In this document: piece after piece, positions 6,373 through 59,566 of the stretch
Layout: each line of letters opens with the position of its first letter
Numbering within the stretch: the stretch's first letter is position 1
From: Schmidtea polychroa
Taxonomy: Eukaryota
Length of the DNA stretch: 64,000 bases
Assembly (NCBI GenBank): GCA_044892525.1
Contig: CM097885.1
Coordinates: 28,894,001 to 28,958,000, forward strand
Direction: 5' to 3'
Position numbers and translations under genes: made by a program
Notes under the pieces: model-generated
Databases searched by the model: none
What the model was told of the DNA's origin: nothing
Seen by the model: the letters and a program-made list of their open reading frames with translations, nothing else

Positions 6373-6994
6373 TTTAAATGAATTAGCTGATTGTAGGTGT
6401 CCTTCAACATGAATTATCAGACTTAAATTATGTAAACTTTCAACGAATGTCAAGAAAAATGGGAAAACCGATGTTTTAACAATTAGATATTGTAAAGTAC
6501 TACCTGAAGAATATTATTATTAATGTAAGACATGAATTAATTCTTTAAAATAAATATATTATATTTAGGTATCTGTGTTTTATGGTGGGAAATGTCATTG
6601 AAAAAGTATACCACAAATAACAGTTGCCTAATTTATCAAGCCTGTGACGATAAAATGCTAGATAATGTAAGTTAATTGCTTTTAAATCAATATAAATTTT
6701 AGCAATGATAGTTGACACCGCATCAGAAACTAAGAAATATGTCCAATTTGCAAAATGTATTCCAAATGGCCTGATGGAGATGATAATTTTGAGATAGATT
6801 ACCAGCAGAAGAGCGAGAAAAATTTGTAAATTAAATATAATAGGGTTGGGTGGGTCCTCTTTATCCCTTAATTAATATATATTTACAAGCTGATCGTCGT
6901 GGTGGGCGGTTGTAATCTAACTAGTGGGAGGCCTCTGTAAATATATATTTGTGTTAGTGAAAACATTAATTAATTTGGTTATAGTGCCAATGAC

Positions 6995-7208
6995 GCATGT
7001 ATTTTGAAATTATACGTTTCGAATGTGCTGGTAGTTGACTACCCATGCTAGGCGTAATGTTCCGTACGGAAAGCTATAATGCCCAGGTTCTTCTGACCCC
7101 ACTTGAGGGAGGCACAGACGACCCTTGTGGACGCGAACAAATATCCACCGTGTCTTTCAGGCACAGATATTTGGTCACTGCTCATTAGGCCTGGCAATAC
7201 TAAATGCA
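6995..7208. ncRNA. Candidate structured RNA or structured DNA island inside putative element B
   Basis: Markedly more GC-rich than its surroundings, with no ORF. Stems seen by eye: GCAT.GTATT/AATAC..ATGC (closing), GGTAG-ttga-CTACC, TTCCGTACGGAA, TGCCCAGG/CCTGGCA, CAAATATC..GTGTCT-ttc-AGGCAC..GATATTTG. Confidence 0.3.
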
Positions 7209-7539
7209 TAAACTTTGCCTTGTCCTCTCTTGTCTTGATTTTTATCGTTTAAATATTATTAAAAATAGTAGGTGTTATAAGTTTTATTTACTAACCTTAA
7301 TAAACCATAATATGCTTTAAACTCGAAAACCCTTGCGACATGTTGAGTGTGAGTAGTACCTTTGTGAGCAATACCCATAGGGGGACAGAATATTTTGTCG
7401 GATAAACTCTGACTATATACACCCATGTTAAACAAGGTATGTGTATATGGAATGTATGTATAAAATTATTGTCAACTTCCCGTGAAGGCAAACACAGAAT
7501 ATTGCAAACATATAATAATTCTCTACCCCATAACTTAGT

Positions 7540-7570
7540 GTGTAAAAATTATTTTAGGTTTTTGACTAAT

Positions 7571-7630
<60 letters not shown>

Positions 7631-7955
7631 GTTTAATGGGTTGTATATGTGTGTAAAAAATATTTGAGGTGTTCACGAATATTGATAATAATAATGGTTT
7701 ATGAGTGTTTTTATGTTTTTGACTAATATTTGCAATAATAATAATGGTTAATGGGTTGTGTGTGTGTGTGTGTAGAAAATATTTTAGGTTTTTTGATAAT
7801 AATAATAACTCCCGCGCGTATTACTTTGAAATAATAAGGTATGTGTATATAGAATGTGTGTGGGGACAGAATATCTTGTCAGATAAACTCTGACTATATA
7901 TAATAATAATCATAATAATAATAACATCTTTCGCGCAGGTGTTAATATCTTTACC

Positions 7956-9043: not shown

Positions 9044-9396
9044 TCCCGCGCGTGTTAATACTTTAAAAGAAAATATTGAAAATTTAAAAAATAATAATAT
9101 TTATGCAAAGCATGTGCAATAATTATGTCTTTGTTAATTAAGTAAACTTTAGTGTCAAAATAAGTTTTTAAAATATTTTTAAATTTAAAATACCGCAACT
9201 TAATATATTTTTGTTCTACCCCTTCATTGATTTAAGTTGGTCAGAATTTAATAATAATTATATTATACCCTTTGAGACATGTTGAATGTGAGTAGTACAC
9301 CTTTGACCATTACCCATATGAGCAATACCCATAAAGGGATAGAATATTTTGTCGGATAGATTAAGAGTATATATGATAATAATATTCCCCGTGCGC

Positions 9397-9474
<78 letters not shown>

Positions 9475-9479
9475 TGAAC

Positions 9480-9625
9480 TTGTATTTGAAATAATAATAA
9501 TAATAATTTACGACATGTTGAGTGTGACCAGTACCCTTGTGACTTGTTGAATGTGAGTAGTACATTTGTGAGCAGTACCCATAGGGGGACAGAATATTTT
9601 GTCGGATAGACTCGGTGTATATATG

Positions 9626-9682
<57 letters not shown>

Positions 9683-10780
9683 CTTAGAAAATAATAATAT
9701 GTAATCAACGATTTAAACAAAATTATATTATTACGTATTCTATAATTAAAACAAAAGAATTATATAATCAATGATTTAAACAAAATTATATAATCATCGA
9801 TAATTAAAACAAAATTATTAATTCTAAAAATATTAGGCATCGTTCTAAAAGTATGATGTAATCATTCTAAAAATATTTGGCATCGTTCTAAAAATATTTG
9901 GCTTCGTTCTAAAAGTATGACGTAATCGTTCTAAAAATATTAGGCATCGTTCTAAAAGTATTACGTAATCATTCTAAAAATATTAGGCATCGTTCTAAAA
10001 TTATGATGTAATCGTTCTAAAAATATTAGGCATCGTTCTAAAAATATTAGGCATCGTTCTAAAAGTATGACGTAATCGTTCTAAAAATATTAGGCATCGT
10101 TCTAAAAATATGACGTAATCATTCTAAAAATATTAGGCATCGTTCTAAAAATATTAGGCATCATTCTAAAATATTAGACATCATTCTAAAAATGTGATGA
10201 GTCATTGTCTTTGTTCTAAAAATGTGATGAGTCATCGTATGATAAAAAATCTATATCTCATTAGAAAGTTCTTGCACAGAGCTTTAAAATAAGCTATCGA
10301 TCAATATAATATGTTGGCGGGAACAATAATTTTTGGGATGAAAAAAAGTAGGTCCCCGCTGGATCACTTAATAATATTTTGAAAAATAATAATAATTTAA
10401 CGTTGAAAAGATGGTGGTCATCAATTGTTAATAACATTAAAACTATTAAAGATATATAAGATACCTATAGCTCATTCGAAAGGTCTTGGACTGAGCTTGA
10501 AGATGAGGTATCGGTTAATAAAATTTGTTGGCGGGAACATTACTTTTGGGAAGAAAAAAAGTAGGTCCCCGCTGGATCACTTAATTTAAAAAAAATTACG
10601 TAATAGTTCTAAAAATATTAGGCATCGTTCTAAAAATATTAGGCATTGATTACGTAATAGTTCTAAAAATATTAGGCATCGTTCTAAAAAAAAAAATAAA
10701 ATTTTTTCCCGGGGGGGGGGGGGGAGGGGGTATATGTGATCTGGAGGGGACATGGTCTGGGGAGCTCACATCCTACTACT
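9480..10780. mobile_element. Right terminal inverted repeat of Polinton element B (left end not seen in the window)
   Basis: Near-copy of element A right TIR: 21/22-bp arrays, GGCGGGAAC modules, poly-G tract. Ends CTACTACT at 10780, followed by GATCTG (predicted TSD). Confidence 0.85.
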
Positions 10781-11159
10781 GATCTGTGGTCTTTTTCATG
10801 TTCTATAAAATTATAATTTAAAGTCATATTCCTATTACGAATATTATCATTCCAAATCTGATTTTGTTTTTCTATATTTTTCAAATCGTTATAATATCGA
10901 TCCATTTTTAAATGATTTTTTCACATATAGCTTTCCTATTAGTATCCAAAGCAACATTATATCTTGTATTCCAATGATTTCTTAATCTATCAAAGTCTGG
11001 TTTTTCCATTGAGGTAGAAAATAAATCATGCTTTTACGCAAATCTGAGCTCTTTATATCTTTAGGGATTTCATCTTGATTTTTAAATATATTTAATATTG
11101 TTTGTTATGTTAGACTATTTTTAAAACCATGATATAATAATTGAAATTCTGGTTGAAAT

Positions 11160-11282
11160 ATTGTTTTATTAAAAATTATTAAATTATTATAATCTAAAAA
11201 CTTGGGGCATAATAACATTTTCAAAAGTAAAACACTTTTACCACAGCCACCAGAAGCTCCAACAATCAACATTCTAAATGAA
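11160..11282 (-). pseudogene. Packaging ATPase fragment of an older decayed Polinton
   Basis: Minus strand reads FRMLIVGASGGCGKSVLLLKMLLCPKFLDYNNLIIF, a Walker A region of an A32-like ATPase. Confidence 0.7.
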
Positions 11283-11741
11283 TTTAGTAATATGATTAAA
11301 TATAATTAAATTCATTGTAATTAAAGTTTGTTAAGTTATTATTCCAAACAGGTAATATTTCAGACATTTTTAGGATTTAAAAATATACCATGACCATTTG
11401 AACATATTTCAACATTTTCTCGTTTCCTTCGTTTTTCAAAATATTTTATCATCAGAAATCTCACGTAAATATTTTATAGTACTTTTTAGTTGATCTTTGT
11501 TTAATATTAAACCTTTTCCATCATATGGTTCAAGAAATATTCCAGAACCAGGAACTGTGCCGGTGTTTAAGAATCTATAAATTTTGTTTCTGCTGTAATT
11601 TAAGCTCGGGATTCATCAGCTAATTGGGATTCTTTAATATTTTTAAAAGCATTGATTATTCTTGTAGTTGCTCCCGTTGCTGCTGTTATACCTTCAAAGG
11701 TTAATGATAATAAAGCTGATAACAGAAGAATTCCTCCTTCA

Positions 11742-11939
11742 TTATAATTTATTAGGAAATATATTTGACGATTCAATCAAGTTTTCAAATGCGTCTTTAA
11801 TTAATTCTTCTTTCTTGTTTAATAATGGAATAGCCCAAGTATATCTAGTATACAAATCAATGATTGTTAGGATATATTTATAATTTTCATTATTTTTCGA
11901 ATTTACTGTTTCAATTAAATCTGCTGAGCAAATATCCAA
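11742..11939 (-). pseudogene. Polinton rve integrase fragment (older decayed element)
   Basis: SADL...NYKYILTIIDLYTRYTWAIPL parallels QMDL...GYKYILTCIDVFSRFARAIPV of the element A integrase. Confidence 0.85.
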
Positions 11940-12157
11940 TCAGCCTTGTAAAAACCTTTAATTTTAAAATATTTTTATTATTTCTATATACTTTGTGTAA
12001 TTGACTTGTTAAAACTTAGATTCACATCATTATCGATTTTACCACTTATGGCTGTTTTTGCAACTGATTTTGAAAATTTTGCTGCGAATGTAGGGTCCTG
12101 AATTTCATTAAGGTCTTGAATTAAATCAATGTCAGCTTTTTGTCGAGATCTTATATC

Positions 12158-12418
12158 TTAAGCATGGTATGCAATATCATGTTTTAAAGCTGCTTGATCA
12201 ACACTATTTATTGGTTCTTCGCCTGGTTTTGGAATATTATTTTCATCGTGTTTCCCTTTGTATTTAGCCCATCGAAAATCCGGAAGTTTAGAACTTGCTT
12301 GTTGCAGATCACTACCGAATTTTGTTTGTTGTATTTTAGTTTTTTTATGTTTTGGTTTGTGAGATTTTGAAATATATTTATTACAAGTTTCACAATAATA
12401 TTTTGGACGTTTATTCAT
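12158..12418 (-). pseudogene. Parvovirus VP1u-type phospholipase A2 fragment with an N-terminal CxxC motif
   Basis: PGEEPINSVDQAALKHDIAY matches the parvoviral PLA2 catalytic helix (P.N.VD.AA..HD.AY). The Ca-binding YxGPG loop is not seen. Confidence 0.75.
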
Positions 12419-14218
12419 TTTTATAATTAAAAATATTAAAAATAATAAACTGTAAAATTGCTCTGAAAGGACAGAGTGTTTTGTTTGTTTGTTTTTTTAT
12501 ACCACTGTCCACCCTGCAGTTTTATTTATTTATTTTTTATTTTTTTTGTTTTTTTATGATCCAGATTATCTTTTTTTAATTTTAACCTCTTTCGTTTATT
12601 GAATTAATTTTAATATACAAGGTGACCAGTCTCATACATCAGAATCAATTCAATACTTGTAATGAGGATTATTAACACTTCTCGTTCTCAAAGCCAATTT
12701 CAACGATGTTTTAAGCGCATTAACAAAAGACCGAAAGTTTCGAAGAGGATTCGAAAGAGCTCCGAAAAAATTCAAACAATTCAGGGATCGATCCCGGGTC
12801 TGTTGGAAAGACTTGTGGCGATGCTTCCCGGTTCACCATCATACCCGATTCAATAAATTATTTTTTCTAAAATTTTTATTTTTATGGAATTACAAATAAT
12901 ATTTTTCTTACAAAAATTTTTTGTTTAGAGAAGTAGTAAAAACGCATAATGAAGCCCGATCCTGAGTAATCTCACTTCTTGATGGTCGTTCGATTGTTCA
13001 GGATCGGGCTTCTTTAAGCCTTTTTACTACAACCGTTATTATGATGTTTCAATGATTTCCTGTGTTAATATTATTAATATTATGAGACTAATAAAGGTTT
13101 ATGGAGTTCAATTAAGAATATAAATCAAATATCATTAAATAATAAAACATAAACCATTAAAAACTTCATTTTTTTAATTTTTAAGAAATAATTTTCATAT
13201 ATTAGTATTCATTTTTTAGCCATGATTTTTATAAATGTTTAGATTTTATTTATGAATTTATATGTAGAATTATAATTTTAGTCTTGAATATCATAAAATT
13301 GGTTTATATTTTCTCTAGTGATTTTTTTGTGAATTTTTAATCATTTCCTTTCAGGACTTCCTTTCAAAGAAAGACAAAAAAATGACTGATCACTGTTGAT
13401 TTCTCTGCAGAATTCATCCGTTTTTGTAGAAGGTTTGATATAATTTAAATTCTTTCAATTTTTCATTAATTCTTGCAAAATCCTTTTCTGACATGTTGAC
13501 TTTTTAAAACATTTAATTAAAACAAAATTGAATTTAAAAAATTTCTTAAAAATAAATTAAACCATATGACTGTAAAGAAGAATTATCGGAATGAATAAAA
13601 TGCTGCAAAAACATATTTGTATGACATGCAAGGAAATGTATACTGGGTGGCTTTCTTACAATGTGCAGTGAACAACAGTTTAAAACACTTTAAAATCCAT
13701 TTATTTTTCAAAAGTAAAGATTTTTCATTCCTATATTTTATATTTTAAAAATGTCTTCAAATGTTTTATATTTATTGTGTGTGAAATATTATAATTAATC
13801 ATTTCATTAATCATTTCTATTTGGAAAACAAAATCGACGTTTTTTGCAGGCATGGTAGCAACCTGTTTAGCTGGGGTAGTGGAGTAAAATTTACATTTAT
13901 TATTTAGTGATATCACCGAAAATTGAGAAAGATTGTTTATTTAGTTCGCTGATCCAAAATGATTATTGTGAACGGAATTAAAGTTTTGTAAGTGGTAGTA
14001 ATCAAAAAAGTTCATATAAGTGCGTAATAGTTGAGATCTTTGAATTATTTGAAAATATTTGAAGTACCATCATCTACGAAACGAGAAATTTTTCTTTATT
14101 TAGAATTATTTAAAAGTGTGAAATAGATCAAAATCTTATATTATAGCATTTTTATTTTAAGAACGCGAGCAATCATATCAGAGCGGTGAAACTGTTAATT
14201 TATTCAAATCTTAGAAGG

Positions 14219-14635: not shown

Positions 14636-14802
14636 ATATTTGTATATGTTATATTTGTGTGTTTGTAGTTATTTATCACGTTTTCAATGTTTCGATTAAT
14701 CGTCTAATTTTGTTTCGTTTTATTAACCTATATGAAATTGTTTGAAATCTTTGTCTAAAAGTGAAATCTTTGAATTATCTTTTTCAAATACAATTCAATT
14801 AT

Positions 14803-15778
14803 AGTAGTAGGATTGGAGCTCCCCAGACCAGGAGCTCCCCGCGCCACATATACCCCCTCCCCCCCCGGGAAAAAAATTTTTTTTTTTTAATTTTTTGTTT
14901 TAATTAATTGGTCCAGCGGTGACCTACTTTTTTCTTTCCAAAAGTAATGTTCCCGCCAACAAATTTTATTGACCGATACCTCATCTTAAAGCCCAGTCCA
15001 AGACCTTTCGAATGAGCTATAGGTATCATATATATCTTTAATAGTTTTAATGTTATTAACAATTGATGACCACCATCTTTTCAACGTTAAATTATTATTA
15101 TTTTCCAAAATATTATTAATTGGCCTGGCGGGCTCACACTTTTTTTCATCCCAAAAATTAATGTTCCCGCCAACATATTATATTGATCGATAGCTTATTT
15201 TAAAGCTCTGTGCAAGAACTTTCTAATGAGATATAGATTTTTATCATACGATGACTCATCACATTTTTAGAACAAAGACAATGACTCATCATATTTTTAG
15301 AACGATGTCTAATATTTTTAGATTGATTACGTCATATTTTTAGAACGATGCCTAATATTTTTAGAACTATTACGTAATCGATGTCTAATATTTTTAGAAC
15401 GGTTACGTCATACTTTTAGAACGATGTCTAATATTTTTAGAACGATGCCTAATATTTTTAGAACTATTACGTAATCGATGTCTAATATTTTTAGAACGAT
15501 GCCTAATATTTTTAGAACGATTACGTCATACTTTTAGAACGATGTCTAATATTTTTAGAACGATGCCTAATATTTTTAGAACTATTACGTAATCGATGTC
15601 TAATATTTTTAGAACGATGCCAAATATTTTTAGAACGATGCCTCTTATTTTTAGAATGATTACGTCATAATTTTAGAACGATGTCTAATATTTTTAGAAC
15701 GATGCTTAATATTTTTAGAACTAATAATTTTTGTTTTAATTATCGATTACATAATAATTTAATTTGTTTAAATCGTTG

Positions 15779-15834
<56 letters not shown>

Positions 15835-15930
15835 CTATCCGACAAGATATTCTTTCCCCTACGGGTAATGCACACAAATGTACTACTCACACTCAACAAG
15901 TCACAAGGGTACTGTTCACAAAGTTACTGG
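14803..15930. repeat. Left TIR of element A
   Basis: Reverse complement of 26320-27476 and 9480-10780. Contains a poly-C tract, 21/22-bp arrays and the palindromic box. Inner boundary approximate. Confidence 0.9.
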
Positions 15931-15986
15931 TAAAAATATTCAAGACAAAACTTTCTAAATTCTAAATATTATTCTTTAAATATACA

Positions 15987-16268
15987 CTAAAATTTATTAA
16001 CACATTCACATTCATCATCTCCACAGTTCATAAAATTTTCAACAACATGATCTATACAATCCCTATATACACACGGTTCAGTATCCGTAAATTCCTCCAT
16101 AGGTTCATCAATTTCTTGAATGTTTTCCTCATCATCTTGAGTGTTTTCTTCATCTGTTTCATCAAATTCCGAATCTTCACTCTCTGCTACCCAGTCTATA
16201 TTTAATGCGTTTGTAACAGATAATATATCCGCCTTTTTCACACCAGATATTTCTGCTAATTTTTCCAA
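15987..16268 (-). CDS. Small acidic protein with Cys-rich C-terminus, unknown function (probably the last exon of a spliced gene)
   Basis: 93-aa ORF with no ATG start. A closely similar copy lies at 51033-51314. Confidence 0.6.
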   Translation of the reverse strand: MEKLAEISGVKKADILSVTNALNIDWVAESEDSEFDETDEENTQDDEENIQEIDEPMEEFTDTEPCVYRDCIDHVVENFMNCGDDECECVNKF

Positions 16269-16441
16269 TAAAAAGTTTATTATAAATTCTAAATATTAAA
16301 TAATTCGATAATTAACTAATCATATTAACCTTTTTCTGTAGTCATTATTAGTATTTTAAAACTATAGTATATATTTGTTTATAGAAAATATAGAATATAA
16401 GCGAAAACAAATATGACTAAATACATTTATTAAATACAACA

Positions 16442-16861
16442 TTAAAATAACTGTGAAAGTCTAGCAGACATAATTTTCCAAATTGGAGAATACACATCAT
16501 TATTATCAACTTTATATCCTTGGATTGTAATTGTTATATACCAATTTTCGTTTTCTTTGAAACTGATTTCATCAAAGGAATCATAAAATTTTGCATATCG
16601 GTTGTTGAAAAATGCATTTTGATTGCATGATAGATTCGTATTCAACCTTTTGAAAACATCATCTATGGTTTTAATATCTAACATTGAAAGCGTGCCGGTT
16701 AAGAATTGAAATTGGGTAGGAATTAACTTGATCGGTGACACCAATTTCATATTGATTTCTTCTTTTAAAAAATACATTTTGTAGTTGTGGAACATTTGAA
16801 CAGGTTGTACAAGTTCTGGAACTACTTTTGGTTTTTCAGTGCTTGAAATTTTCTTGGTCAT
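16442..16861 (-). CDS. Polinton hypothetical protein, 139 aa
   Basis: ATG-started non-repetitive ORF, with TATAAAA about 35 nt upstream on the minus strand. Confidence 0.7.
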   Translation of the reverse strand: MTKKISSTEKPKVVPELVQPVQMFHNYKMYFLKEEINMKLVSPIKLIPTQFQFLTGTLSMLDIKTIDDVFKRLNTNLSCNQNAFFNNRYAKFYDSFDEISFKENENWYITITIQGYKVDNNDVYSPIWKIMSARLSQLF

Positions 16862-16969
16862 TGTGAATTATGATTAAAATGAAATGGTACAGGGTTTTTA
16901 TACCTATGACTATTGTTTATCATCCAATCAGATTGCAGTATGTTTTTGTTTTAATTGAATGATAAATAA

Positions 16970-17434
16970 TTAATTAAGTGATAATAAAAAATCTAAAAAT
17001 TCTTTTCCTTCAATTATTGATTTAATTTCAGATATGATATTATCAACTATACATTTGTAATCAATATTTTTTATTCCAAGAATTACTATCTTACGGCTAG
17101 CGAATATATTTACACACATAGGGTTATATTTTATATATCTCAAAGCTGGAAATAATTCTGGTTCATAAAAGCATGGTATTAATTTAGCTAATTTATTTAA
17201 ATTACAAGAAAAACCTATATCGGAAGTTACGGTTATCGATTGTATTTCTAAATCATAAACATTATATTCACTAGCTTTGATTATTTCCTTACACCCCATA
17301 ATTCTACATTTACCAGTTTTGAAATATATTATTGGATATTTATTACTTCTATTGATAAGTTGTTGTGGTTTCCCTATTGGAAATACCATTTTTGATACAT
17401 CAGTTTTTGCCCTGTAATTTATATTTGAAAGCAT
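16970..17434 (-). CDS. TATA-binding protein (TBP)-like protein encoded by the Polinton
   Basis: Two TBP-type repeats: LSNINYR..IIYFKTGKCRIMGCK and IQSITVTSDIGFSCNL..YEPELFPALRY..NIFASRKIVILGIK. Compare TBP LIFSSGKMVCTGAK, IQNMVGSCDVKFPIRL, YEPELFPGLIY, LIFVSGKVVLTGAK. Confidence 0.9.
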   Translation of the reverse strand: MLSNINYRAKTDVSKMVFPIGKPQQLINRSNKYPIIYFKTGKCRIMGCKEIIKASEYNVYDLEIQSITVTSDIGFSCNLNKLAKLIPCFYEPELFPALRYIKYNPMCVNIFASRKIVILGIKNIDYKCIVDNIISEIKSIIEGKEFLDFLLSLN

Positions 17435-17538
17435 TTTAATGAAATAATTTTAAAAACTTTGATATATATAGGTATTTAAAAACAGAGTTCATTTAAATTA
17501 TCAATATAAACAATAATTATATAGTTTAAATTTAAAAA

Positions 17539-18177
17539 ATGGAATTACGAAATGATGCAGTATACCAAATCGTTGGTCCAAGTGGTAGCGGGAAAACTTT
17601 ATTTGTTTGTAAATTACTAAAATCAAATTTGTTTAAAACAAAATTCAACAATATTTATTGGCATAGGGGCGCCGACGAAGAACACGGATTGACGCAATCA
17701 AGTTTCTGTCAGTTGAAAAACATGAAAATAGTAAAGGGCTTTGATAAAAACTGGTCAAGTCGTTTGAAGAAAGATGATGTCATCATTATCGATGATTTGT
17801 ATCAAGAAGCCAATAAAGAAAAGGACTTTAATAATTTATTCACAAAAATCAGCAGACATGTTGGTGTAACAGTTATTTTCATAACACAAAATCTATTTCA
17901 TCAAGGTGGTGCACATCGAACACGTAATTTAAATGTACAATATTTAGTTATTTTCAAGAATCCTAGAGATGCAACTGTCATTGATTTTCTTGGACGACAA
18001 GCATAACCTAATAACCGTAATTTTCTTATCAGTGCATTTCAAGATGCCACGAAAATACCGCATGGGTATATATTTCTCGATTTCACACAACAATGCCCTG
18101 ATGATATACGGGTAAAAACAGATATTTTCAAGCCAAAAGGTGCCATGGTATATAAACAAAGTTCAAAACAAAGTTGA
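17539..18177 (+). pseudogene. A32/FtsK-like packaging ATPase with an in-frame TAA at 18004-18006
   Basis: Walker A GPSGSGKT, Walker B IIIDD, SRH and ITQNLF motifs. The frame continues after the stop (PNNRNFLISAFQDATKIPHGYIFLDF..RVKTDIF) to TGA at 18177. Confidence 0.92.
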
Positions 18178-18190
18178 AAACATATAAATC

Positions 18191-18685
18191 ATGTTTTCAA
18201 AAACAAGGATATCGGGTAAAAAACAACCAAAAGTTCCACCAACAACTAGTTATACTCCATCTAAAGATCTTATTACAGAAAATTTTCCTGCAATGAATCT
18301 TATTTCGAAAAATCCTAAACCTAAACCTAAAAGTAAAACCACTAAGAAAGTAAAAGTTGTTAAAAATCATCGGAGTTTCCCGTTTTTCAATACATTGTTA
18401 AAGGCACCAAGTATGAAAAGAAACAGTATTTTGCAATCTTTTCCAAATTATGTTGTCGATGATTTACTCGATATTATACTTAAAGTAGTCAAAGGCAAGA
18501 TTAAAATCAGTAAATCTAAAAAGCAATTATTGAGTAAACATAGGAAACCTTTGCTATCATTAGTAAATAATAAAAATCGTCAACAAATGAGAAAAATTAT
18601 ATATAAACAACAAGGGGGATTTATCGGTGCATTGATACCTTTAGCAATATCATTATTAGGTGGAATAATAGGAAGTCGATCATAA
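18191..18685 (+). CDS. Basic virion protein with adenovirus pX-like C-terminus
   Basis: Lys-rich. Ends QQGG|FIGALIPLAISLLGGIIG, similar to the adenovirus pX GGFLPALIPII motif and an adenain cleavage site. Confidence 0.7.
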   Translation: MFSKTRISGKKQPKVPPTTSYTPSKDLITENFPAMNLISKNPKPKPKSKTTKKVKVVKNHRSFPFFNTLLKAPSMKRNSILQSFPNYVVDDLLDIILKVVKGKIKISKSKKQLLSKHRKPLLSLVNNKNRQQMRKIIYKQQGGFIGALIPLAISLLGGIIGSRS

Positions 18686-18746
18686 ATAATGGGTGCTAAT
18701 CCTTCATTACCAGACATTAAATTTAATATTAAATCTTCTTGTTGTA

Positions 18747-19802
18747 ATGGAGAAGATTTGGACGAACCCGGAAGACGAAGCCGGTTTTGGTGGAGTGGCA
18801 AAATTAAGGAAAAGAGTTCCGAATTCGAAAAAGGAAACTCAGAAGTGGTTATCAGACCAGCTTGCGTACAGTTTGAACAAACCAATGCGGAAACGATTCC
18901 CAACAAGAACATATAAAACATATGGAATAAATGATTTATGGCAAATGGATTTGATGGAGATGATACCCTATTCGAAAATTAACAATGGGTATAAATATAT
19001 TTTAACATGTATTGATGTATTCAGTCGGTTTGCCCGAGCAATACCCGTCAAGGCAAAATCTGCAGATGAAATGTCCAAAGCTGTTAATCATTTATTTAAA
19101 GATAGACATCCTAAAAACTTGCAAACTGATTTAGGTATTAATATTATTATTTTTATTATTATTATTATTATTTTAGGTAAAGAATTCTACAACAGTAAAG
19201 TCAAGCAAATCCTCAATAAATTGAAAATAAACCATTACTCAGTACATTCTCAATACAAAGCTGCTCATGTTGAAAGATTTAACCGAACTTTGAGAGATAG
19301 ATTAAAGAAATTATTCGTGCATCAAGGTAATAAAAAATGGGTATTGGTTTTACCAAAAATAATAACCAGTTATAATCACTCATCACATCAAGGACTGAAT
19401 GGATTAAGGCCGATTGATATCACGTCAAAAACAATCTATTCTAAAAAACCTGAAAAAATTACAAAACCGAAATATAAAGTAGGTGACCATGTTAGAATTA
19501 GTAAAATTAGTGCATCACCATTTATTAAAAATTTTGATACGAATTGGAGTGATGAAGTCTTTGTAATTTCAAAAATAAATACTAAACAGAATCCTGTAAT
19601 GTATGTCATCAAAGATAATGATAACAATATTGTACAAGGAAAATTTTATGAGCAGGAATTACAAGTTATTCCTCCCCCAAAAGTATTTAGAATTCAGAAG
19701 ATATTGAAAACTAAAAATAAAGGCAAGGATAAACAATACTATGTCAAATGGCATGGTTATCAAAACCCATCATGGATATCAGAAAAGGATCTAGTAAAGT
19801 GA
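18747..19802 (+). CDS. Polinton retroviral-like (rve) integrase with C-terminal chromodomain-like region; 42-nt intron at 19135-19176
   Basis: Motifs WQMDL, TD(LG)KEF after splicing, VERFNRTLR and YYVKWHGY. ATG at 18747 is the assumed start. Confidence 0.95.
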   Translation: MEKIWTNPEDEAGFGGVAKLRKRVPNSKKETQKWLSDQLAYSLNKPMRKRFPTRTYKTYGINDLWQMDLMEMIPYSKINNGYKYILTCIDVFSRFARAIPVKAKSADEMSKAVNHLFKDRHPKNLQTDLGINIIIFIIIIIILGKEFYNSKVKQILNKLKINHYSVHSQYKAAHVERFNRTLRDRLKKLFVHQGNKKWVLVLPKIITSYNHSSHQGLNGLRPIDITSKTIYSKKPEKITKPKYKVGDHVRISKISASPFIKNFDTNWSDEVFVISKINTKQNPVMYVIKDNDNNIVQGKFYEQELQVIPPPKVFRIQKILKTKNKGKDKQYYVKWHGYQNPSWISEKDLVK

Positions 19803-20815
19803 ATTTTTATACTATTTTACCAAGCAATAGTTGCCCGCTTATTCATCCAGATAATCAAGCCAGTAAATTCATGGTCAATCTCCAGAATCCGATTTCTTTA
19901 AATGGTGACTGGGAAGTTGCACTGCAAGATTTTACATTCGTGTACAATACATTCCCATTTTATAGTCAATGTAAGATTGATTTCAAAAGGAATGCTATGA
20001 AAACATGTAGTGGTATCTTTATTATCAGTAATTATGATAAAACATATCATATTCCGAATCAAATATTAGATCAGCATTGCACTATGTTTTACAAGGATGG
20101 ATTAAATATCAGTTGTGATTTTAAACCATTTACAATAACATTCGAATATATTGAAGATGCCAGACGAATGGGTTGCAATAAGTTGAAAAATGAAGTTATG
20201 GAAACAGAATATTTATTACGCTTTGATCTATTTGAAGCAAACAGTGTAATGAGAGAAGAAATCAAAATTTCAGTGTCGTATAATAATGAAGTTGAAGAAT
20301 CATTCACCTTCGCTGACGAATTATATATTGATAAACTTGATGTGTTACTTAAATATTTAAAGTATAATTGTTCACACATATTTAAAAGTTTGGATATTGT
20401 GAAAGATTTGTTATTTACCTTCAGTTTGAATGATGACATTTGCGAAGTTACATTTGATAAAAATTTGACAAATACACTTGGATTAGAGAAGCAGCAATAT
20501 CGGGAAAAATCGGCTGGTATACGTAAACCAAGAATACTTGAACATCATCAACAAATGTTCATATATACTAATATTATTGAGCCTATAATAGTTGGTGATT
20601 CCAGTGTTCCTCTATTGAAATCGGTGTGGATTGGAAAATATGAACATGATGAAGTTGTCAATATAAATATAGATAATCCCATGTATTTACCAATTTCAAG
20701 CTCATCTATAAACAATATAGAAATAAATATTCGTGACGATAGTGGAAAACTTATAAATTTCCCAAAAGACTCAAAAACTCATTTGACACTACATTTTCGT
20801 AAAGTAGATGGCTAA
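19748..20815 (+). CDS. Minor capsid protein (penton, Polinton PX)
   Basis: FYTILPSNS..N..S.F.V.L..PI.L.GDWEVAL at the N-terminus. FIYTNIIEP.IVGD..VPLL..Y.P..INNIEINIRD..G..I.F..TLHFRK at the C-terminus. Confidence 0.88.
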   Translation: MAWLSKPIMDIRKGSSKVNFYTILPSNSCPLIHPDNQASKFMVNLQNPISLNGDWEVALQDFTFVYNTFPFYSQCKIDFKRNAMKTCSGIFIISNYDKTYHIPNQILDQHCTMFYKDGLNISCDFKPFTITFEYIEDARRMGCNKLKNEVMETEYLLRFDLFEANSVMREEIKISVSYNNEVEESFTFADELYIDKLDVLLKYLKYNCSHIFKSLDIVKDLLFTFSLNDDICEVTFDKNLTNTLGLEKQQYREKSAGIRKPRILEHHQQMFIYTNIIEPIIVGDSSVPLLKSVWIGKYEHDEVVNINIDNPMYLPISSSSINNIEINIRDDSGKLINFPKDSKTHLTLHFRKVDG

Positions 20816-21170
20816 TTCCGATATTATTAGTATGTATAGTGATAGCCAATCTGGTGGTGAATTACCATATTTTATTGGTAAACAGTATGGATCAGGTTGG
20901 TTAAAAACAATAGGGAGATTTGCACTTCCCATTCTTAAACGTATTGGTAGTTTTGGCATGAAAACTGCAAAAGATGTGATTATGAATGAACAGAAAATAT
21001 TACCATCCCTAAAAACAAATGCTTTAGCTGAGTTTGGGAAGGTTCTACCTGGAGTTGCTGGTATGTTTCAAAAAGATACACCTCCAGTCCCAGCTCCAAA
21101 ACGTAAAGTACATGGAATATCGCGTATAAACAAACGAATGAAAGGACATGGAACTATATTTGCAAAATGA
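20808..21170 (+). CDS. Small basic virion core or membrane-active protein
   Basis: QSGG and QYGSG protease-site-like motifs followed by amphipathic WLKTIGRFALPILKR. It lies between penton and MCP and overlaps both. Confidence 0.7.
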   Translation: MANSDIISMYSDSQSGGELPYFIGKQYGSGWLKTIGRFALPILKRIGSFGMKTAKDVIMNEQKILPSLKTNALAEFGKVLPGVAGMFQKDTPPVPAPKRKVHGISRINKRMKGHGTIFAK

Positions 21171-22390
21171 TTTGTGGTAAATCCGAATTATGTATATTTG
21201 ATAGACCATCGCCCCAGGCTGTAATAGAATTTGGTGCCTTTGAGGAAGTTTTTCCTATGAATTCAATTACTGATAGTAGAAATGATATCGAGTTTTATAT
21301 TAATGGTTCGCAAACTGAATATTTAGATTTGAACGATACTTTATTGACTGTTCAGATCAAGGTTGTAGATAAAGATAGAAAGGTTTTGGATGCCAATGCG
21401 GATGTATTACCAAACAATTTCATGTTTCATACTCTGTTTAAAGATGCAGTGTTGGGATTTAATAATATCAAGATTGAGGGTGGAAATAATACATTCATTC
21501 ACAAGGCTTTGATAGAAACTATTTTAAATTACAATTCAGATACTAAAAATACCTGTCTTACACCTATGGGTTATGCAGCAGCAGATGATGAAAGAAAAAA
21601 GTGGGTTAAAGGTTCAAAAGTATTCACTATGTGCTCATCATTACAACTTGATTTTATGGATCAACCGAAATATTTACTACCGGGAGTTAATATACATATT
21701 AGACTGAAAAGATCTGATTCTTCATTGTCTCTTACTAGTGCAACTGGTGCACCAATATGTCAATTAGTTGATGCAAAATTATTGGTGAGAAGAGTTCGAG
21801 TAGACCCGTCAGTATTAGCTGGTCATCAATTGGGGCTCAATTCAAAACATGCAATTTATCCTTTAAAAACAAAGGAAATTGTACAATTTGCTATTGCAAA
21901 AGGTGCTTCATCATTCTATAAAGAACAAATATTTGGTGACAGAAGAATGCCTAATTTTATTCTGGTAACATTTCAAAGTGAAACGCAATATAATGGATCG
22001 TATACTGCTTCCAGCTCAATTTTCAAAAATTTTGGTGTTACTTCATTGACTTTATCGAAAAATACTGATTATAGAGAAACATATACTCAAGATTTCGAGA
22101 ATGATAATTACTGTGCGACATATATGCAGAGTATTGTTAGAAATCTGGGTTATTTAGATAAAAACTTGAATTGCGGAATAACTCTTGAAGAATTTAAAAG
22201 CAAATACCCATTTTTCACATTTGTTCTAGCTCCCGATTTTGATTTAAATCAGAGTCAATTACCACAAAACGGGAATTTACGACTGGATATAAAGTTTGCA
22301 AAGGCCATTACTGAACCAGTACATGTTATAATATATGGAGTATTTGAAAATGAAGTTCAAATTACTGCAAATAGAACCGTGCTAGTATAA
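21167..22390 (+). CDS. Major capsid protein (double jelly-roll, Polinton PY)
   Basis: 407 aa with KSEL.IF, IEFYI.G..EYLDLNDTLL, QPKYLLPGV.I.IRL and G.LRLDIKFA motifs typical of Polinton MCPs. Confidence 0.9.
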   Translation: MICGKSELCIFDRPSPQAVIEFGAFEEVFPMNSITDSRNDIEFYINGSQTEYLDLNDTLLTVQIKVVDKDRKVLDANADVLPNNFMFHTLFKDAVLGFNNIKIEGGNNTFIHKALIETILNYNSDTKNTCLTPMGYAAADDERKKWVKGSKVFTMCSSLQLDFMDQPKYLLPGVNIHIRLKRSDSSLSLTSATGAPICQLVDAKLLVRRVRVDPSVLAGHQLGLNSKHAIYPLKTKEIVQFAIAKGASSFYKEQIFGDRRMPNFILVTFQSETQYNGSYTASSSIFKNFGVTSLTLSKNTDYRETYTQDFENDNYCATYMQSIVRNLGYLDKNLNCGITLEEFKSKYPFFTFVLAPDFDLNQSQLPQNGNLRLDIKFAKAITEPVHVIIYGVFENEVQITANRTVLV

Positions 22391-22802
22391 ATGTATACAG
22401 AAACACCAAAAAGTTGTCATGGAGTAAGTTTTTCAATACTGTTTAATTTATTAAAGTAGTTCTGTTCAGGTCAATAGAATTGGAAAACAGATATTGGGAA
22501 ATGAATTTGTAGGAGTTTTTCCTCTCGATAAAATCCCATATTTGAGCAATAATCAAGCCATAATCGTCAATACTCAATCGTCTCATCTTGGTGGAGAACA
22601 TTGGATTGCTATATATGTGAAACCTAGTAATATATTCGTGTTCGATCCTATGGGTTTCTATTACCCTGCTTTGTTGGTATCAAAACTACAAACAATGGGG
22701 AAACCTATTGTATATAATAAAACAATGTTTCAAAATCCCTTGACACAAACATGCGGTCAACATTGTTTAGCTTGGTTGTTGTATAAAAAATTTGATGATT
22801 AA
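22391..22802 (+). CDS. Adenain-like cysteine protease (probable 46-nt intron at 22424-22469)
   Basis: FVGVFP.D, VNT, GEHW (His), FDPMG (Asp), Q..TCGQHC (Gln/Cys). ATG 22391 joins the frame through a phase-0 GTAAGT..TTCAG intron. Confidence 0.9.
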
Positions 22803-22832
22803 TAAATGTATTTTGTATCCTTTGTTGTTGTT

Positions 22833-22863
<31 letters not shown>

Positions 22864-22936
22864 TTATTTTATTATTATTATTATTTTATTATTATTATTA
22901 TTATTATTATTAATATTATTAATATTATTATTATTA

Positions 22937-23009
<73 letters not shown>

Positions 23010-23023
23010 ATTATTATTATTAT

Positions 23024-23054
<31 letters not shown>

Positions 23055-23154
23055 ATTATTATTTTTAATTAAATTTATTTTGAAAAATATTATTATCTAA
23101 CTACACAAACAATGTGCATGCACAAAGATATGCAATCCCATTTGATACCATTTG

Positions 23155-23238
23155 ATTGGCTGATAGAGGAAAAAGTATTCAGGAATGTGTCTTAATTCTG
23201 ATTGGTTGAGACATGGAAATATTCCTGTTCTATATAAA
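23155..23238 (+). promoter_or_regulatory. Putative Pol II promoter of the element A PolB gene: two inverted CCAAT boxes plus TATA
   Basis: ATTGG at 23155 and 23201, TATATAAA at 23231, ATG at 23297. The same layout precedes PolB in element C. Confidence 0.55.
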
Positions 23239-23296
23239 CATTGACAATTCTAAAATTCGTCATAATTATTCTTAAATTTACAAATTTTAAATTAAA

Positions 23297-25450
23297 ATGA
23301 ACGCTGATTTACACAAAATTTTGAATGCCATGTTGATGGGTGAAAATGGTAAATTATTTAGTTATTATTATTATTATTTTTATTTATTATTTTAGAGAAT
23401 TTATGGTACCAAGTGACTGAAGATGATTCAATTTTGAATGTTGATAGGATTTTCGGTAAATTTAAATATTTTAATTTTTATGAAATTATTATTTTATTTA
23501 GAACCTATTATAATTAGCGACGATGATGATGTCGTGTTTATTGGGCAAAATGATGCCCCGGATAATGATGCCTTATTTGTTAGGCAAAACAATGTTTTTA
23601 ATGAACAAAGTAAATTTATTTTATTTTAGTATATTATTTTTTAAAAATCATTTTAGTGTTTAATGTTGACATGGACGCTGAAATCGATGTTCCAATTAAT
23701 AATGATTCTATTGAGGAGATGAATAATGCACTGACTTCTATCGATGAGCTGAATTATGTGGATAATACAATCGAGGAGCTTGTTAATGTGGATAATGCCA
23801 TCACTTCTATTGAGGAGGTTGCTGATAATGAATCAGATTCCGACATGGAATCACGATGTTAGTATTTATTTATTTTTATATATTTATTTTTTTTTTTTAA
23901 AAACCTTGTAAATTTCTTAAATACTTTTTAAACATTTTCTTTAAAAACTTATTTATAAAAACTTATTATGAAAATGAAGAAAATATTATGTTGAAATTGA
24001 AAATGTTATGTTGACTAAATGATGAAAATATTATGATGAAGAAAATGATGAAAATATTATGATGAAGAAAATGATGAAAATATTATGATGAAGAAAATGA
24101 TGAAAATATTATGATGAAGAAAATGTTTAAAAAGTATTTAAGAAACAATAGTTTTAAAATATTCCTTGTAGTTTGCAATGAGCAACTACATTAGTTAAAA
24201 TAATAATAATAATAATAATAATATTAAAAATAGTAATAAAAATATATCTTGTAGTCTGCAGTGAGCATGCAGCTACATATCTCTTTTATTATGATTGCCC
24301 CAATAAATGTAGTCTGCAGTCAGCATGCAGCTACATATCTCTTTTATTATGATTGCCCCAATAAATGTAGTCTGCAGTCAGCATGCAGCTACATATCTCT
24401 TTTATTATGATTGCCCCAATAAATGTAGTCAGCTGTCAGCTGCATCAAATATTTATTACATAATAAATACCCTTTATTAAATGTAGTCTGCATGCAGCTG
24501 CATCAAACTATTTATTACGTAATAAATACAATCTTTAAATGTAGTCTGCATGCAGCTGCATCAAACTATTTATTACGTAATACATACCCTTTATTAAATG
24601 TGTCTAAATGCAGCTGCGTCAAACTAAATATTTATTACGTAATACATACAATCTTTAAATGTAATCTGCATGCAGCTGCATCAATAATGATAATAATGAT
24701 AATAATAATAATAATAATAATAATAAAATCACACATTTATAGTTTACAAGACTTTATTAATATAAATACAATTTCATGATTAATATTAATTGATAAATAT
24801 AATTAACAGGCAAATTATATCCACATTACTGCCAGGCTTCAACTGGTCACTCAAATTTATGTCACAAAGTGATGAAAAAATATTATGGTCGTAAATTTTA
24901 TGGCATCAAGTACTATATATGCCCAATATGCGAGACTTCCCATAGCATTAAATATTTAGAGTTTTACAGTATACATAAATCCCATTTAAATCAGTTCTCT
25001 TTAAATAAAAAGGATTTATTTAACAAACTACGAAATACTGCAAAACCTATAATTAAAACTAATGTAAATAATACAAAACCTGTAAATAATATTACAAAAC
25101 CTGTAAATAATAATACAAAACCTGTAAATAATATTACAAAACCTGTAAATAATATTACAAAACCTGTAAATAATAATACAAAACCTGTAAATAATATTAC
25201 AAAACCTGTAAATAATAATACAAAACCTGTAAATAATATTACAAAACCTGTAAATAATATTACAAAACCTGTAAATAATAATATAAAACATGTAAATAAT
25301 ATTACAAAACCTCTAATTAATAATGTTATTAATGTAAATAATAATTTAAAAAGACCTGCTGTTAGTATTGGGTCTGATGCTCCCTCTAAAATTAATAAAT
25401 TAGAACAAATAACTGTGGTTAATAATATTCAAGTAGGCGGTTCAGTATAA
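23297..25450 (+). CDS. Five-exon N-terminal part of the element A PolB gene: acidic domain, Cys/His domain, (NNxTKPV)n repeat
   Basis: Exons 23297-23348, 23396-23455, 23502-23609, 23657-23857 and 24810-25450. All introns are GT..AG phase 1 and give one open frame. The Cys domain aligns with the ORF at 43326 in element C. Confidence 0.75.
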
Positions 25451-25949
25451 GGAATGGGTTTTCTTAAGACCCAAGTGCTATAGTTTGTTAGGGGCTAAAG
25501 ATCATTTAAAGGCAAAAGGAGTTAGGTTAATAGGTACAGAAATTAGGCACGAATCATATTTAGAATGCTACAATAACGACGTAGTATTTTCTGTGCCACA
25601 AAGTAGGATAGGGACGCGGAACCACCAATTGTACACATTTAAAAACAATAAAATCGCGTTGACAAACAACGACGACAAGCGGTTTTGGGTGGGGAAAAAT
25701 TCCAGTCTCGCATTTGGTCATTATTTAGCACTAGATGATATAAATGATGATCAAATATTTGAAGAAGTTGGGCCACTATTCGGAGGATTAAGTCCAGATT
25801 TTGTTTCTGGTGATGAGGAAGTGGGTCCACTTTTCAATGGTTTAAGTCCAGATTTCGATTCTGGTGATGATCCTAATGATGAAATTGATATTGACGATGT
25901 ACAATTGAGTGACGAAATTGATATTGATGATGTACAATTGAGTGATTAA
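25443..25949 (+). pseudogene. C-terminal remnant of protein-primed PolB, fused out of frame after an internal deletion
   Basis: QYKEWVFLRPKCYSL..KAKGV..DDKR..LAFGHY, nearly identical at its start to element C PolB. Acidic repeated tail. Confidence 0.9.
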
Positions 25950-26319
25950 GCGATTTTAATATCTTTTTCCTGTGATAAATAAATATAACTTTGTAAAAAC
26001 ATTGATTTGTGTTGATTTTTATTAATGAAACGTTTTCGTATTTCTTTCTATGGATAAAAATCATTATATTGTGTAATATTATTAAACATTCCTTAAGTGT
26101 TTAAACATAGAAAGTATATTAAAATTTGTTTTATTATTGAAAACTAGTAATGTTGTCACTATGGAACAGGACTTTGTTTTGAGCCATTAAAAGAATTTAA
26201 ATTTTTATAAAGTTTTATTATTTTTATTTAATTTGATAATACTGTTCATATTTACTTTAGTTTACAGTGAGCATGTAACTAAATATCTTTGAAAAAATAA
26301 TAATAATAATAATATGAAC

Positions 26320-26430
26320 AGTACCCATGTGACTTGTTGAGTGTGAGTAGTACATTTGTGTGCAGTATCCATAGGGGGACAGAATATTTTGTCGGATAGA
26401 CTAGGAGTATATAATAATTATAAATATAAT

Positions 26431-26514
<84 letters not shown>

Positions 26515-26632
26515 TTACGACATATTGAGTGTGAGCAGTACCCTTGTGACTTGTTGAGTGTGAGTAGTACATTTGTGTGCAGTACCCTTAGGGGGACAGA
26601 ATATTTTGTCGGATAGACTCGGTGTATATATG

Positions 26633-26692
<60 letters not shown>

Positions 26693-27476
26693 TTAAAACT
26701 TAGAAAATAATAATATGTAATCAACGATTTAAACAAAATTATATTATTACGTATTCGATAATTAAAACAAAAATTATTAGTTCTAAAAATATTTGGCATC
26801 GTTCTAAAAATATTAGACATCGTTCTAAAAATATGACGTAATCGTTCTAAAAATATTAGGCATCGTTCTAAAAATATTAGGCATCGTTCTAAAAGTATGA
26901 CGTAATCATTCTAAAAATATTAGGCATCGTTCTAAAAATATTTGGCATCGTTCTAAAATTATGACGTAATCATTCTAAAAATATTAGGCATCATTCTAAA
27001 AATATTAGGCATCATTCTAAAAGTATGATGTAATCATTCTAAAAATAATAGACATCGTTCTAAAAATATTTGGCATCATTCTAAAATATTAGACATCATT
27101 CTAAAAATGTGATGAGTCATTGTCTTTGTTCTAAAAATGTGATGATTCATCGTATGATAAAAATCTATATCTCATTAGAAAGTTCTTGCACAGAGCTTTA
27201 AAATAAGCTATCGATCAATATAATATGTTGGCGGGAACAATAATTTTTGGGATGAAAAAAAGTAGGTCCCCGCTGGATCACTTAATTTAAAAAAAATTAC
27301 GTAATAGTTCTAAAAATATTAGGCATCGTTCTAAAAATATTAGGCATTGATTACGTAATAGTTCTAAAAATATTAGGCATCGTTCTAAAAAAAAATAAAA
27401 TTTTTTTTCCCGGGGGGGGGAGGGGGTATATGTGGCCGGGGGAGCTCCTGGCCGGGAGGGGACACATCATACTACT
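26320..27476. repeat. Right TIR of element A
   Basis: Inverted copy of the left TIR lacking one ~210-bp module. Inner boundary approximate. Confidence 0.9.
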
Positions 27477-27943
27477 AATTATCGCTGTAGTCTTCAAAGT
27501 ATTCTATATATAATTTTGTTTGGATGCTTTCTTTACGAAAATTAAATTCTCGCCATCTATGCTGTTGATGATTTGTCAATTGAATAAATTGATCATGAGT
27601 ATAAATCCCTTTTGTTTTGGTTTTTGACATACGACTAACGCATCAATGAATTTGGAATAGCTATCTTATAGGAAATTTAAATTTTTGGCTGTGTTTTTAG
27701 GTAAGTAAATCAATCGCATAATTTTGAAATTATAATCCAGCAGTTTTGTAGAGAATAAAATTCTATATAAAACTTCTTATTTTCAATTTTACATAATAAT
27801 TCTTTAAATGTTAAAAATTTGGTTGGGCAATTTCTTTGTTCCAGTGACCCCACTAAAAACCCATAAAAATTACATTGAGATACAACACATATTTTTAAAA
27901 TATCTTTGAGTTATTAATATAATGATTTTATTATTAAACGTAC

Positions 27944-59546: not shown

Positions 59547-59566
59547 ACAATCATCATTATTACCTT

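Follow-up and report, generated by a model that had tools for sequence, protein, structure and literature searches.

A short TATA-binding protein homologue and a TATAAAC(A/G) box ahead of virion genes in a clade of Polintons

Results

The locus and its genes

The stretch analysed here, termed the window, comprises 64,000 nucleotides of the AT-rich, 781-Mb genome of Schmidtea polychroa (contig CM097885.1, positions 28,894,001 to 28,958,000), and all positions are counted from its first letter. It contains a Polinton/Maverick copy whose parts are listed in Table 1. The Polinton features present are a 6-bp target-site duplication, inverted repeats, an rve integrase, a packaging ATPase and an adenain protease. 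The element ends in AGTAGT.../...ACTACT and has terminal inverted repeats with a similarity of about 80-94%; at about 9260-10781 there is a second terminal repeat, which resembles the right-hand one of this element.

Table 1. Features of the element and its surroundings, in window coordinates.
Feature	Position	Strand	Basis
Polinton/Maverick (Beta-adintovirus-like) copy, imperfect terminal inverted repeats, most of PolB deleted	14803..27476		Ends, target-site duplication, gene content
Left target-site duplication AATTAT	14797..14802	+	Sequence
Right target-site duplication AATTAT	27477..27482	+	Sequence
Acidic ORF	15987-16295	-	Preceded by box at 16376..16383
TATAAACA box ahead of acidic ORF	16376..16383	-	Motif scan
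ORF139, often neighbouring the TBP gene in relatives	16442..16861	-	Neighbourhood comparison
Mini-TBP gene, 154 aa	16970..17434	-	ORF, Pfam, AlphaFold2 model, alignment
Canonical TATA-like box TATATATA, 36 nt upstream of TBP start	17463..17470	-	Sequence
TATAAACA box, 34 nt before ATPase start	17505..17512	+	Unchanged in 28/28 copies with locatable start (of 30)
Packaging ATPase (Pox_A32-like), stop at 18004-18006 in window copy	17539..18177	+	Pox_A32, E 8.3e-8
TATAAACA box inside ATPase end, 40 nt before ORF164	18151..18158	+	Motif scan
ORF164, basic conserved virion-block protein	18191..18685	+	Conservation
TATAAACA box, 87 nt before small Met-Gly ORF	18602..18609	+	Motif scan
Retroviral-type integrase with chromodomain	18747..19802	+	Pfam rve, E 7.6e-9; Chromo
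Variant box GATAAACA ahead of putative penton gene	ends 19735	+	Sequence
Putative penton/minor capsid protein	19748..20815	+	Position; no match in Pfam
TATAAACA box inside penton gene, 101 nt before ORF120	20707..20714	+	Motif scan
ORF120, conserved small virion-block protein	20808..21170	+	Conservation
TATAAACA box inside ORF120, 42 nt before major capsid start	21125..21132	+	Motif scan
Putative major capsid protein	21167..22390	+	Size, position; no Pfam or PDB sequence match
Adenain-like protease (Peptidase_C5), probably short intron near start	22392..22802	+	Peptidase_C5, E 1.2e-6
TATAAACA box, ~65 nt before unnamed, apparently multi-exon gene	23233..23240	+	Motif scan
PolB N-terminal and C-terminal remnants flanking internal deletion	24872..25949	+	Sister-copy comparison

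The capsid-sized ORFs are conserved in their expected size and place, with no match to Pfam or to PDB sequences, and we assign penton and major capsid protein partly on presumed resemblance to known proteins. On the same kind of resemblance alone, we take ORF164 to be Cupiennin/core-protein-like. ORF139, which had no match in Pfam, no usable match in the Atlas and a single-sequence model of low quality (pLDDT 39.8), may be an OB-fold single-strand-binding protein. The window copy is defective. Its ATPase stop occurs in this copy alone of 33, and it lacks most of the PolB gene relative to three of four sister stretches, where a long ORF occupies the PolB place (53-58% identical to a DNA_pol_B_2-positive fragment; the partial sister ORF has no direct DNA_pol_B_2 match).

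Several smaller features were also seen within the element. A candidate 42-nt, AT-rich, in-frame GT-AG intron is predicted in the integrase gene (19135-19176), and short AT-rich GT-AG intron-like stretches are predicted in the protease gene (22429-22457) and in the unnamed multi-exon gene (23298-23860). Contigs from a sequencing run that we guess to be RNA, and that may be DNA, match 16988-17332 and list no splice joints at the candidate introns, which is evidence neither way. A small ORF beginning with Met-Gly and carrying a Cys-Cys or Cys-x-Cys motif (18689-18916) overlaps the start of the integrase gene in another frame; it is conserved at the same place in six other elements (L036, L037, L041, L068, L100 and L104), and its product may, judged by this sequence, be myristoylated.

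Elsewhere the window holds other repeats: a perfect 2611-nt inverted repeat with a 693-nt spacer (1-5915), related to a sequence inserted in another copy of the element (L087); a decayed minus-strand remnant of another Polinton type with many relatives in the genome, comprising ATPase, integrase and a PLA2-like piece (10782-13300); PolB remnants of a further Polinton family, 89-93% like the decayed PolB in L104 (43895-47100); and, by eye, a minus-strand Ty3/Gypsy-like retrotransposon with gag, RT and integrase ORFs (56020-60730).

A short TBP that lacks the helices of its first lobe

The original prediction had described an intact, intronless ORF of 154 amino acids inside a TSD-bounded element, head-to-head with the ATPase gene, and had called its second repeat TBP-like and its first repeat shortened. 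This description held up throughout. The minus-strand ORF is a single open frame, 104 nt separate its start from that of the ATPase gene, and AATTAT flanks the element. Its product, here called mini-TBP, matched the TBP family PF00352 in one stretch (residues 62-125; E 1.4e-12, 47.7 bits against a cut-off of 22.9), and an archaeal TBP was the top PDB match by sequence (E 2.5e-14). An AlphaFold2 model built from a 55-sequence alignment (pLDDT 95.5, pTM 0.84) could be aligned with TBP over both lobes (141 residues, 1-141; Z 12.6, rmsd 2.5 A), and in this model the TBP fold accounts for the whole 154-residue protein. The model thereby confirms that mini-TBP has the two-lobed saddle fold of the TBP family.

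The second repeat (residues 60-153) is complete, while the first (about residues 1-58) has lost both of its helices, H1 and H2, and not just length as previously noted. The modelled first lobe keeps its four strands and has no helix; none of four residues or more is seen in residues 1-78. Relative to plant TBP, the first lobe is shorter by ~10 residues over helix 1 and by ~13 over helix 2: the family median distance from the first Asn to the first Phe is 37 residues versus 47, and the helix-2 region measures 18 residues versus 31.

All 55 family sequences share the YEPELFP stirrup with E91, E93 and F95, as well as F38 and F111, and all 55 carry a proline (P23) in place of the stirrup Phe of repeat 1, so that three of the four intercalating Phe are kept, in agreement with the Phe positions originally read from the sequence. 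In yeast TBP numbering, F116, F190, F207, N69 and E186/E188 correspond to F38, F95, F111, N4, E91 and E93, whereas F99, V71, V122, T124, N159, I194, V203 and L205 are replaced by P23, N6, R44, M46, S66, R99, C107 and N109 (mapped through the plant TBP P0118, with the letters checked in the alignment). Each replaced DNA-facing residue is fixed in all 54-55 rows covering its position. The Arg at residue 114, suspected to be a copy-specific change from SGK to SRK, is indeed private to the window copy, since 29 of 29 other fetched copies differ at this codon, these being the best-scoring copies rather than a random sample. According to a passage in PMC7221094, the C-lobe glutamate pair of TBP contacts TFIIB, and a basic patch on N-lobe helix 2 binds TFIIA, TAF1, Brf1/2, Mot1 and NC2.

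The gene is conserved among Polintons and stands apart from host TBPs

From 4119 first-look candidates in the host genome, a figure that gives no copy number, 150 matches were scored, and all 150 were full length, 99-100% identical and stop-free. A divergent TBP query revealed further TBP-bearing families in the same genome (148 of 150 scored matches stop-free), in one of which the TBP gene lies ~9 kb after the capsid gene. At three places TBP genes stand in opposed pairs 5-10 kb apart (G000:C1:179572801-179583347, C1:210412201-210417251 and C2:116843638-116852166), an arrangement which suggests fold-back or palindromic derivatives of the element.

Outside this genome, 60 of 76 candidates proved to be homologues, 38-58% identical and mostly of 144-160 amino acids, except for one near-identical fragment. 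A profile search returned 59 clusters at E<=1e-30, and longer relatives that retain the helices exist as well (for example P0143, P0145 and P0161). A cluster look-up of ten relatives gave no informative names and no virus accessions, and no relative came up when IMG/VR was scanned with alignments of the TBP, of the ATPase, of the capsid and of distant TBPs, or with the capsid protein itself. A metagenome scan yielded 53 loci, or 52 after one weak match (L083) was dropped. A core Polinton gene was present in 19 of the 52, and, among the loci of at least 3 kb, in 14 of 20, or 18 of 20 if ORF139 is counted; the gene is thus shared across elements, including metagenome Polintons. In these relatives the TBP gene lies before the ATPase gene in either orientation, or after the protease gene. 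The head-to-head layout was therefore rejected as an essential feature, relatives also having TBP upstream of and co-directional with the ATPase. One relative, L036, additionally carries a ubiquitin-conjugating-enzyme-like ORF (225-722; E 1.7e-12) and two tandem penton-like genes (5610-7684).

Being intronless and shorter than host TBP, the ORF might in principle be a passenger, namely a recently captured host TBP retrocopy decaying in one element. Selection, origin and distribution all speak against this. For 54 loci, 46 of them with a complete coding sequence, 34 pairs had usable synonymous divergence, and dN/dS was 0.05-0.45 in all 34 (median about 0.2). The window gene itself was too distant to enter any pair, and within-genome copies were kept out because the fetched copies had been selected for protein identity. 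The host possesses a canonical, intron-bearing TBP (74% identical to plant TBP) and at least three paralogues. In a tree of 49 rows, the short family and its longer relatives formed one branch (100/100), apart from the seven cellular rows and not nested among the host TBP and its three paralogues; the tree was midpoint-rooted, and four of its few cellular rows came from the host, two of these being single exons. The gene moreover occurs in several families of the host genome and in many metagenome Polintons. A recent host retrocopy is refuted by the dN/dS values and the tree, and we regard the passenger reading as hardly conceivable. By these comparisons, the mini-TBP gene is conserved and under purifying selection in a clade of Polintons, and it is not a captured host gene or a recent retrocopy.

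A TATAAAC(A/G) box precedes the packaging and virion genes

In the window the box has no excess in number (11 found versus 16.9 expected), and the overall motif count was rejected as a test; the protease gene of this copy has no TATAAAC box ahead of it. The association becomes apparent when gene starts are compared across elements. For this we used 15 loci, one picked by eye from each near-identical group, and windows of 125 nt before the starts. TATAAAC(A/G) was present before 37 of 46 packaging and virion gene starts (ATPase 9/9, ORF164 6/7, penton 4/9, ORF120 7/7, major capsid protein 8/8, protease 3/6), versus 4.5 in windows drawn at random on the same strand (at most 12 over 2000 draws) and 0.12 on the opposite strand. 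It was also the top de novo 7-mer, although homologous positions are not independent and the significance is overstated. Windows before the integrase gene, which were excluded from the 46, contained the box in only 1 of 8 cases (38 of 54 in total when included), and it stands within 160 nt ahead of the small Met-Gly ORF in 4 of 8 loci. The 15 loci hold 79 boxes altogether, and 37 of these could not be assigned to any annotated start.

The box is strictly oriented. Over 96.8 kb, TATAAACR is split 76:3 between the strands, and this bias is confined to the full motif: TATAAAAR is split 23:18, TATAAATR 26:19, TATAAACY 6:3, (A/C/G)ATAAACR 31:26 and TGTAAACR 4:3. The distance from box to start is about 31-110 nt, with 32-37 nt for 7 of 9 ATPase genes and only 1 of 37 boxes nearer than 31 nt. 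Such a floor at ~31 nt is what would be expected if transcription begins ~30 nt downstream of the box.

The block is tightly packed, and most boxes fall within the closing stretch of the gene before. Of the Ile-Asn pairs in coding DNA, 17 of 31 are written ATA AAC when they lie among the final 45 codons, versus 8 of 74 elsewhere. The position of the boxes, together with the short A/T-rich late initiators that other large DNA viruses use, would fit a signal acting at the RNA level or as an initiator, marking start sites or translation re-initiation independently of TBP. We consider this very unlikely, because the block's first gene has the box as well, with no gene ending upstream of it, and because the distances stop near 31 nt and do not run to zero. 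That the box lies 40-100 nt before the upstream stop likewise speaks against its being a poly(A) signal.

A true promoter might also be read by a host protein, with the viral TBP acting elsewhere or as a helper. The host has its canonical TBP and the paralogues described above, cellular TBP has been crystallised on a C(-25) variant (title of PDB 1qn3), where a Hoogsteen pair could be used, and forkhead factors recognise RTAAAYA, a consensus that ATAAACA matches. The strand bias, however, needs the leading T (76:3 with it, 31:26 without) and is absent from TGTAAACR, which argues against a forkhead factor, and the strict orientation and spacing floor argue against a host reader more generally, as does the absence of the box from elements without mini-TBP, another family of this host among them. 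We therefore judge a host reader unlikely, albeit a serious possibility.

The evidence on elements without mini-TBP comes from a contrast set that is small and not independent, consisting of two related distant elements and 9.9 kb of one other family. Four stray Polinton contigs (L100, L101, L102 and L103), probably eukaryotic contaminants in bacterial MAGs, came to light when prokaryote assemblies were scanned for the ATPase. L100, which was thus picked out independently of TBP, has mini-TBP as well as ten boxes on the sense strand and none on the opposite strand. L101 is a distant element, its capsid being 25% identical, and its TBP has both repeats in full and retains the first stirrup Phe; L102 (7.9 kb) has no TBP that we could see, and L103 is a 3-kb fragment. 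None of six windows in L101 and L102 contained TATAAACR; instead, both elements carry a canonical TATAAAAG 38 nt before the ORF164-like gene, the same spacing as that of TATAAACR in elements with the short TBP. In a 9.9-kb stretch of a PLA2-bearing Polinton family from the host genome, no TBP match and no box before 12 ORFs were found. These controls agree with a model in which mini-TBP reads TATAAACR. Still, the link between protein and box is a co-occurrence within one clade, which shared ancestry could explain. As a separate observation, the L101 TBP returned only itself when used as a query, and the two ORFs flanking it (L101:10818-12713), which had only a weak DUF7290 match in Pfam, resemble, by eye, PC4-type single-strand-binding coactivators.

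The TBP genes themselves lack the box (0 of 45 upstream windows). A canonical TATAWAWR stands, as a raw count, before 19 of these 45 genes, but 11 of the 46 late windows contain one too; for this reason, the half of the model that concerns an early promoter is weak. The TATATATA sequence upstream of the window gene is accordingly no more than a candidate for an early, host-read promoter, as such a sequence is weak evidence in AT-rich DNA.

A model for late-gene activation

The original prediction offered two possible roles for the protein: redirection of host Pol II to late promoters of the element, or action as a TFIIB decoy. The TATAAAC(A/G) box lends strong, if indirect, support to the former. 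With moderate confidence, we propose from the sequences that mini-TBP is a late-gene TBP which reads a C7 variant of the TATA box that cellular TBP uses poorly, and which recruits host TFIIB and Pol II. The host TFIID would first transcribe the TBP gene as an early gene. Mini-TBP would then bind in the minor groove of TATAAACR, its remodelled first lobe covering the C at position 7, and would recruit host TFIIB and Pol II. It would escape TFIIA, TAF1, Brf1, Mot1 and NC2 because the helix-2 docking surface is absent. In this way, a single protein would switch the element from early to late expression by firing a series of overlapping internal promoters.

Passages in earlier structural and genetic work bear on this proposal. 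In cellular TBP it is the N-proximal lobe that sits on the 3' half of the box (PMC1636458), and the second pair of Phe is inserted between bases 7 and 8 (PMC1935006). A yeast HIS3 TR element with a C at position 7 is inactive, and this base imposes a Hoogsteen pair (PMC4457894, in a secondary passage). Base 7 is precisely where the box departs from the consensus, and it would be faced by the remodelled lobe. One counter-point is unexplained: the TBPm3 specificity positions I194, V203 and L205, which act on base 2, are replaced by the invariant R99, C107 and N109, yet the 5' half of the box is canonical. Moreover, the loss of one intercalating Phe and of both first-lobe helices could weaken DNA binding.

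Such weak or absent DNA binding is the premise of the other suggested role, in which mini-TBP would mainly be a TFIIB decoy or dominant-negative inhibitor of host transcription. The TFIIB stirrup is indeed invariant while the first lobe has eroded and one intercalating Phe is gone. However, the DNA-facing residues N6, R44, M46, S66, R99 and N109 are fixed in 54-55 of 54-55 sequences instead of drifting, three intercalating Phe remain, and a decoy explains a clade-specific TATA variant before virion genes less well. We consider a decoy distinctly unlikely.

In the late-gene reading, TFIIB would come from the host; TBP and TFIIB are a textbook pair that requires DNA. Among the element ORFs scanned as unspliced frames (12 in the window, plus those of relatives), none matched TFIIB. 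In the host genome, clusters of near-identical, apparently intronless TFIIB-family genes with ~304-aa frames were seen at G000:C1:23.85-24.19 Mb and C3:38.2-39.1 Mb. The best unspliced host TFIIB-family frame found (L109) looks Brf1-like by a motif.

Taken further, the sequences may point to a clade of animal Polintons with a self-contained, one-protein early-to-late cascade, in which a minimal, regulator-proof TBP and a TATA variant of its own have evolved together (a full-length TBP going with TATAAAAG in distant relatives, and mini-TBP with TATAAACR). This would be a natural orthogonal TBP-promoter pair that uses host TFIIB and Pol II and allows virion proteins to be made without a helper virus. 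We put this broader proposal forward tentatively, giving it slightly less than an even chance.

Discussion

How integrated animal Polintons activate their conserved capsid genes, and whether they possess a late programme of the viral kind, is a question that the factor and the 8-bp box named here make directly testable. If the model is true, the elements would also offer a natural experiment on TBP, with a core that lacks the first-lobe regulatory surface, keeps the TFIIB stirrup and may read a disfavoured TATA variant.

The original prediction was not aware of any description of such a TBP in Polintons, and the literature bears this out only in part. The legend to Fig. 5 of Starrett 2021 (PMC8502044; bioRxiv 10.1101/697771) labels a TBP-like gene in MELD viruses with an adintovirus-like PolB, so that the bare presence of TBP in the adintovirus-like group is, as far as this label goes, not wholly new. 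That gene likewise sits in a Polinton-related virus, and may or may not belong to the mini-TBP family. In the portion of the paper available to us, there is no text on the structure, distribution or promoter of TBP, and the word 'promoter' occurs 0 times. For the protein-plus-box pair we found no earlier account. A literature search on Polintons and on the motif (for the motif, the best 25 of 125 listings), with Repbase and subscription journals outside its scope, turned up neither a short family of TBPs nor a promoter box, and the Starrett legend was the only relevant item. The terms polinton, adintovirus, maverick and MELD were all absent from the text of four supplements of PMC7221094. Mentions of TATA in PMC10675990 (on mirusvirus-like elements) and PMC12220804 (an author name) were unrelated.

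The element agrees with the virion module of Polinton/Maverick Beta-adintoviruses (Terrapene-class) in its 6-bp target-site duplication, inverted repeats, ATPase, rve integrase with chromodomain, adenain and capsid-sized ORFs, and probably in PolB, of which the window copy has remnants. It differs in adding a TBP gene and per-gene TATAAACR boxes, for which we found no description in that group.

With cellular TBP, both eukaryotic and archaeal, mini-TBP shares the two-lobed saddle, the YEPELFP stirrup, three of four intercalating Phe and the first Asn. Canonical cellular TBP, in contrast, has two complete repeats with H1/H2 and four intercalating Phe, and mini-TBP has neither: at 154 residues, its first lobe is without H1, H2 and the stirrup Phe. 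It forms a separate clade, about ten of its DNA-facing positions are fixed as other residues, and it is associated with TATAAACR and not with TATAWAWR.

The TBPs of Nucleocytoviricota are likewise viral TBPs with a non-conserved N-lobe regulatory surface, which a passage in PMC7221094 proposes to permit escape from Mot1. According to the same source, their TFIIB-binding glutamates have mostly diverged and a viral TFIIB is often present, whereas mini-TBP keeps both glutamates. With its TFIIB contacts kept and its N-lobe regulatory surface deleted, mini-TBP is thus the opposite of the giant-virus TBPs. Its top match in BFVD was only 17% identical (E 5.1e-7).

The closest working analogy is the late system of beta- and gamma-herpesviruses, in which KSHV ORF24, EBV BcRF1 and HCMV UL87 act with a TATT box (as outlined in part of PMC6541308). 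In both cases a viral TBP-like protein would be paired with a modified TATA box ~30 bp ahead of late structural genes transcribed by host Pol II. The herpesvirus proteins, as described there, are large, bind Pol II directly and need a six-protein complex, and their box is changed at position 4. Mini-TBP, in contrast, is smaller than TBP and keeps the TFIIB stirrup, its box is changed at position 7 (to C), and its structural likeness to BcRF1 is weak (E 0.025). The mini-TBP/box pair would therefore work like ORF24 and TATT without being a member of that system and, if the model is true, would be a convergent and far simpler counterpart of it.
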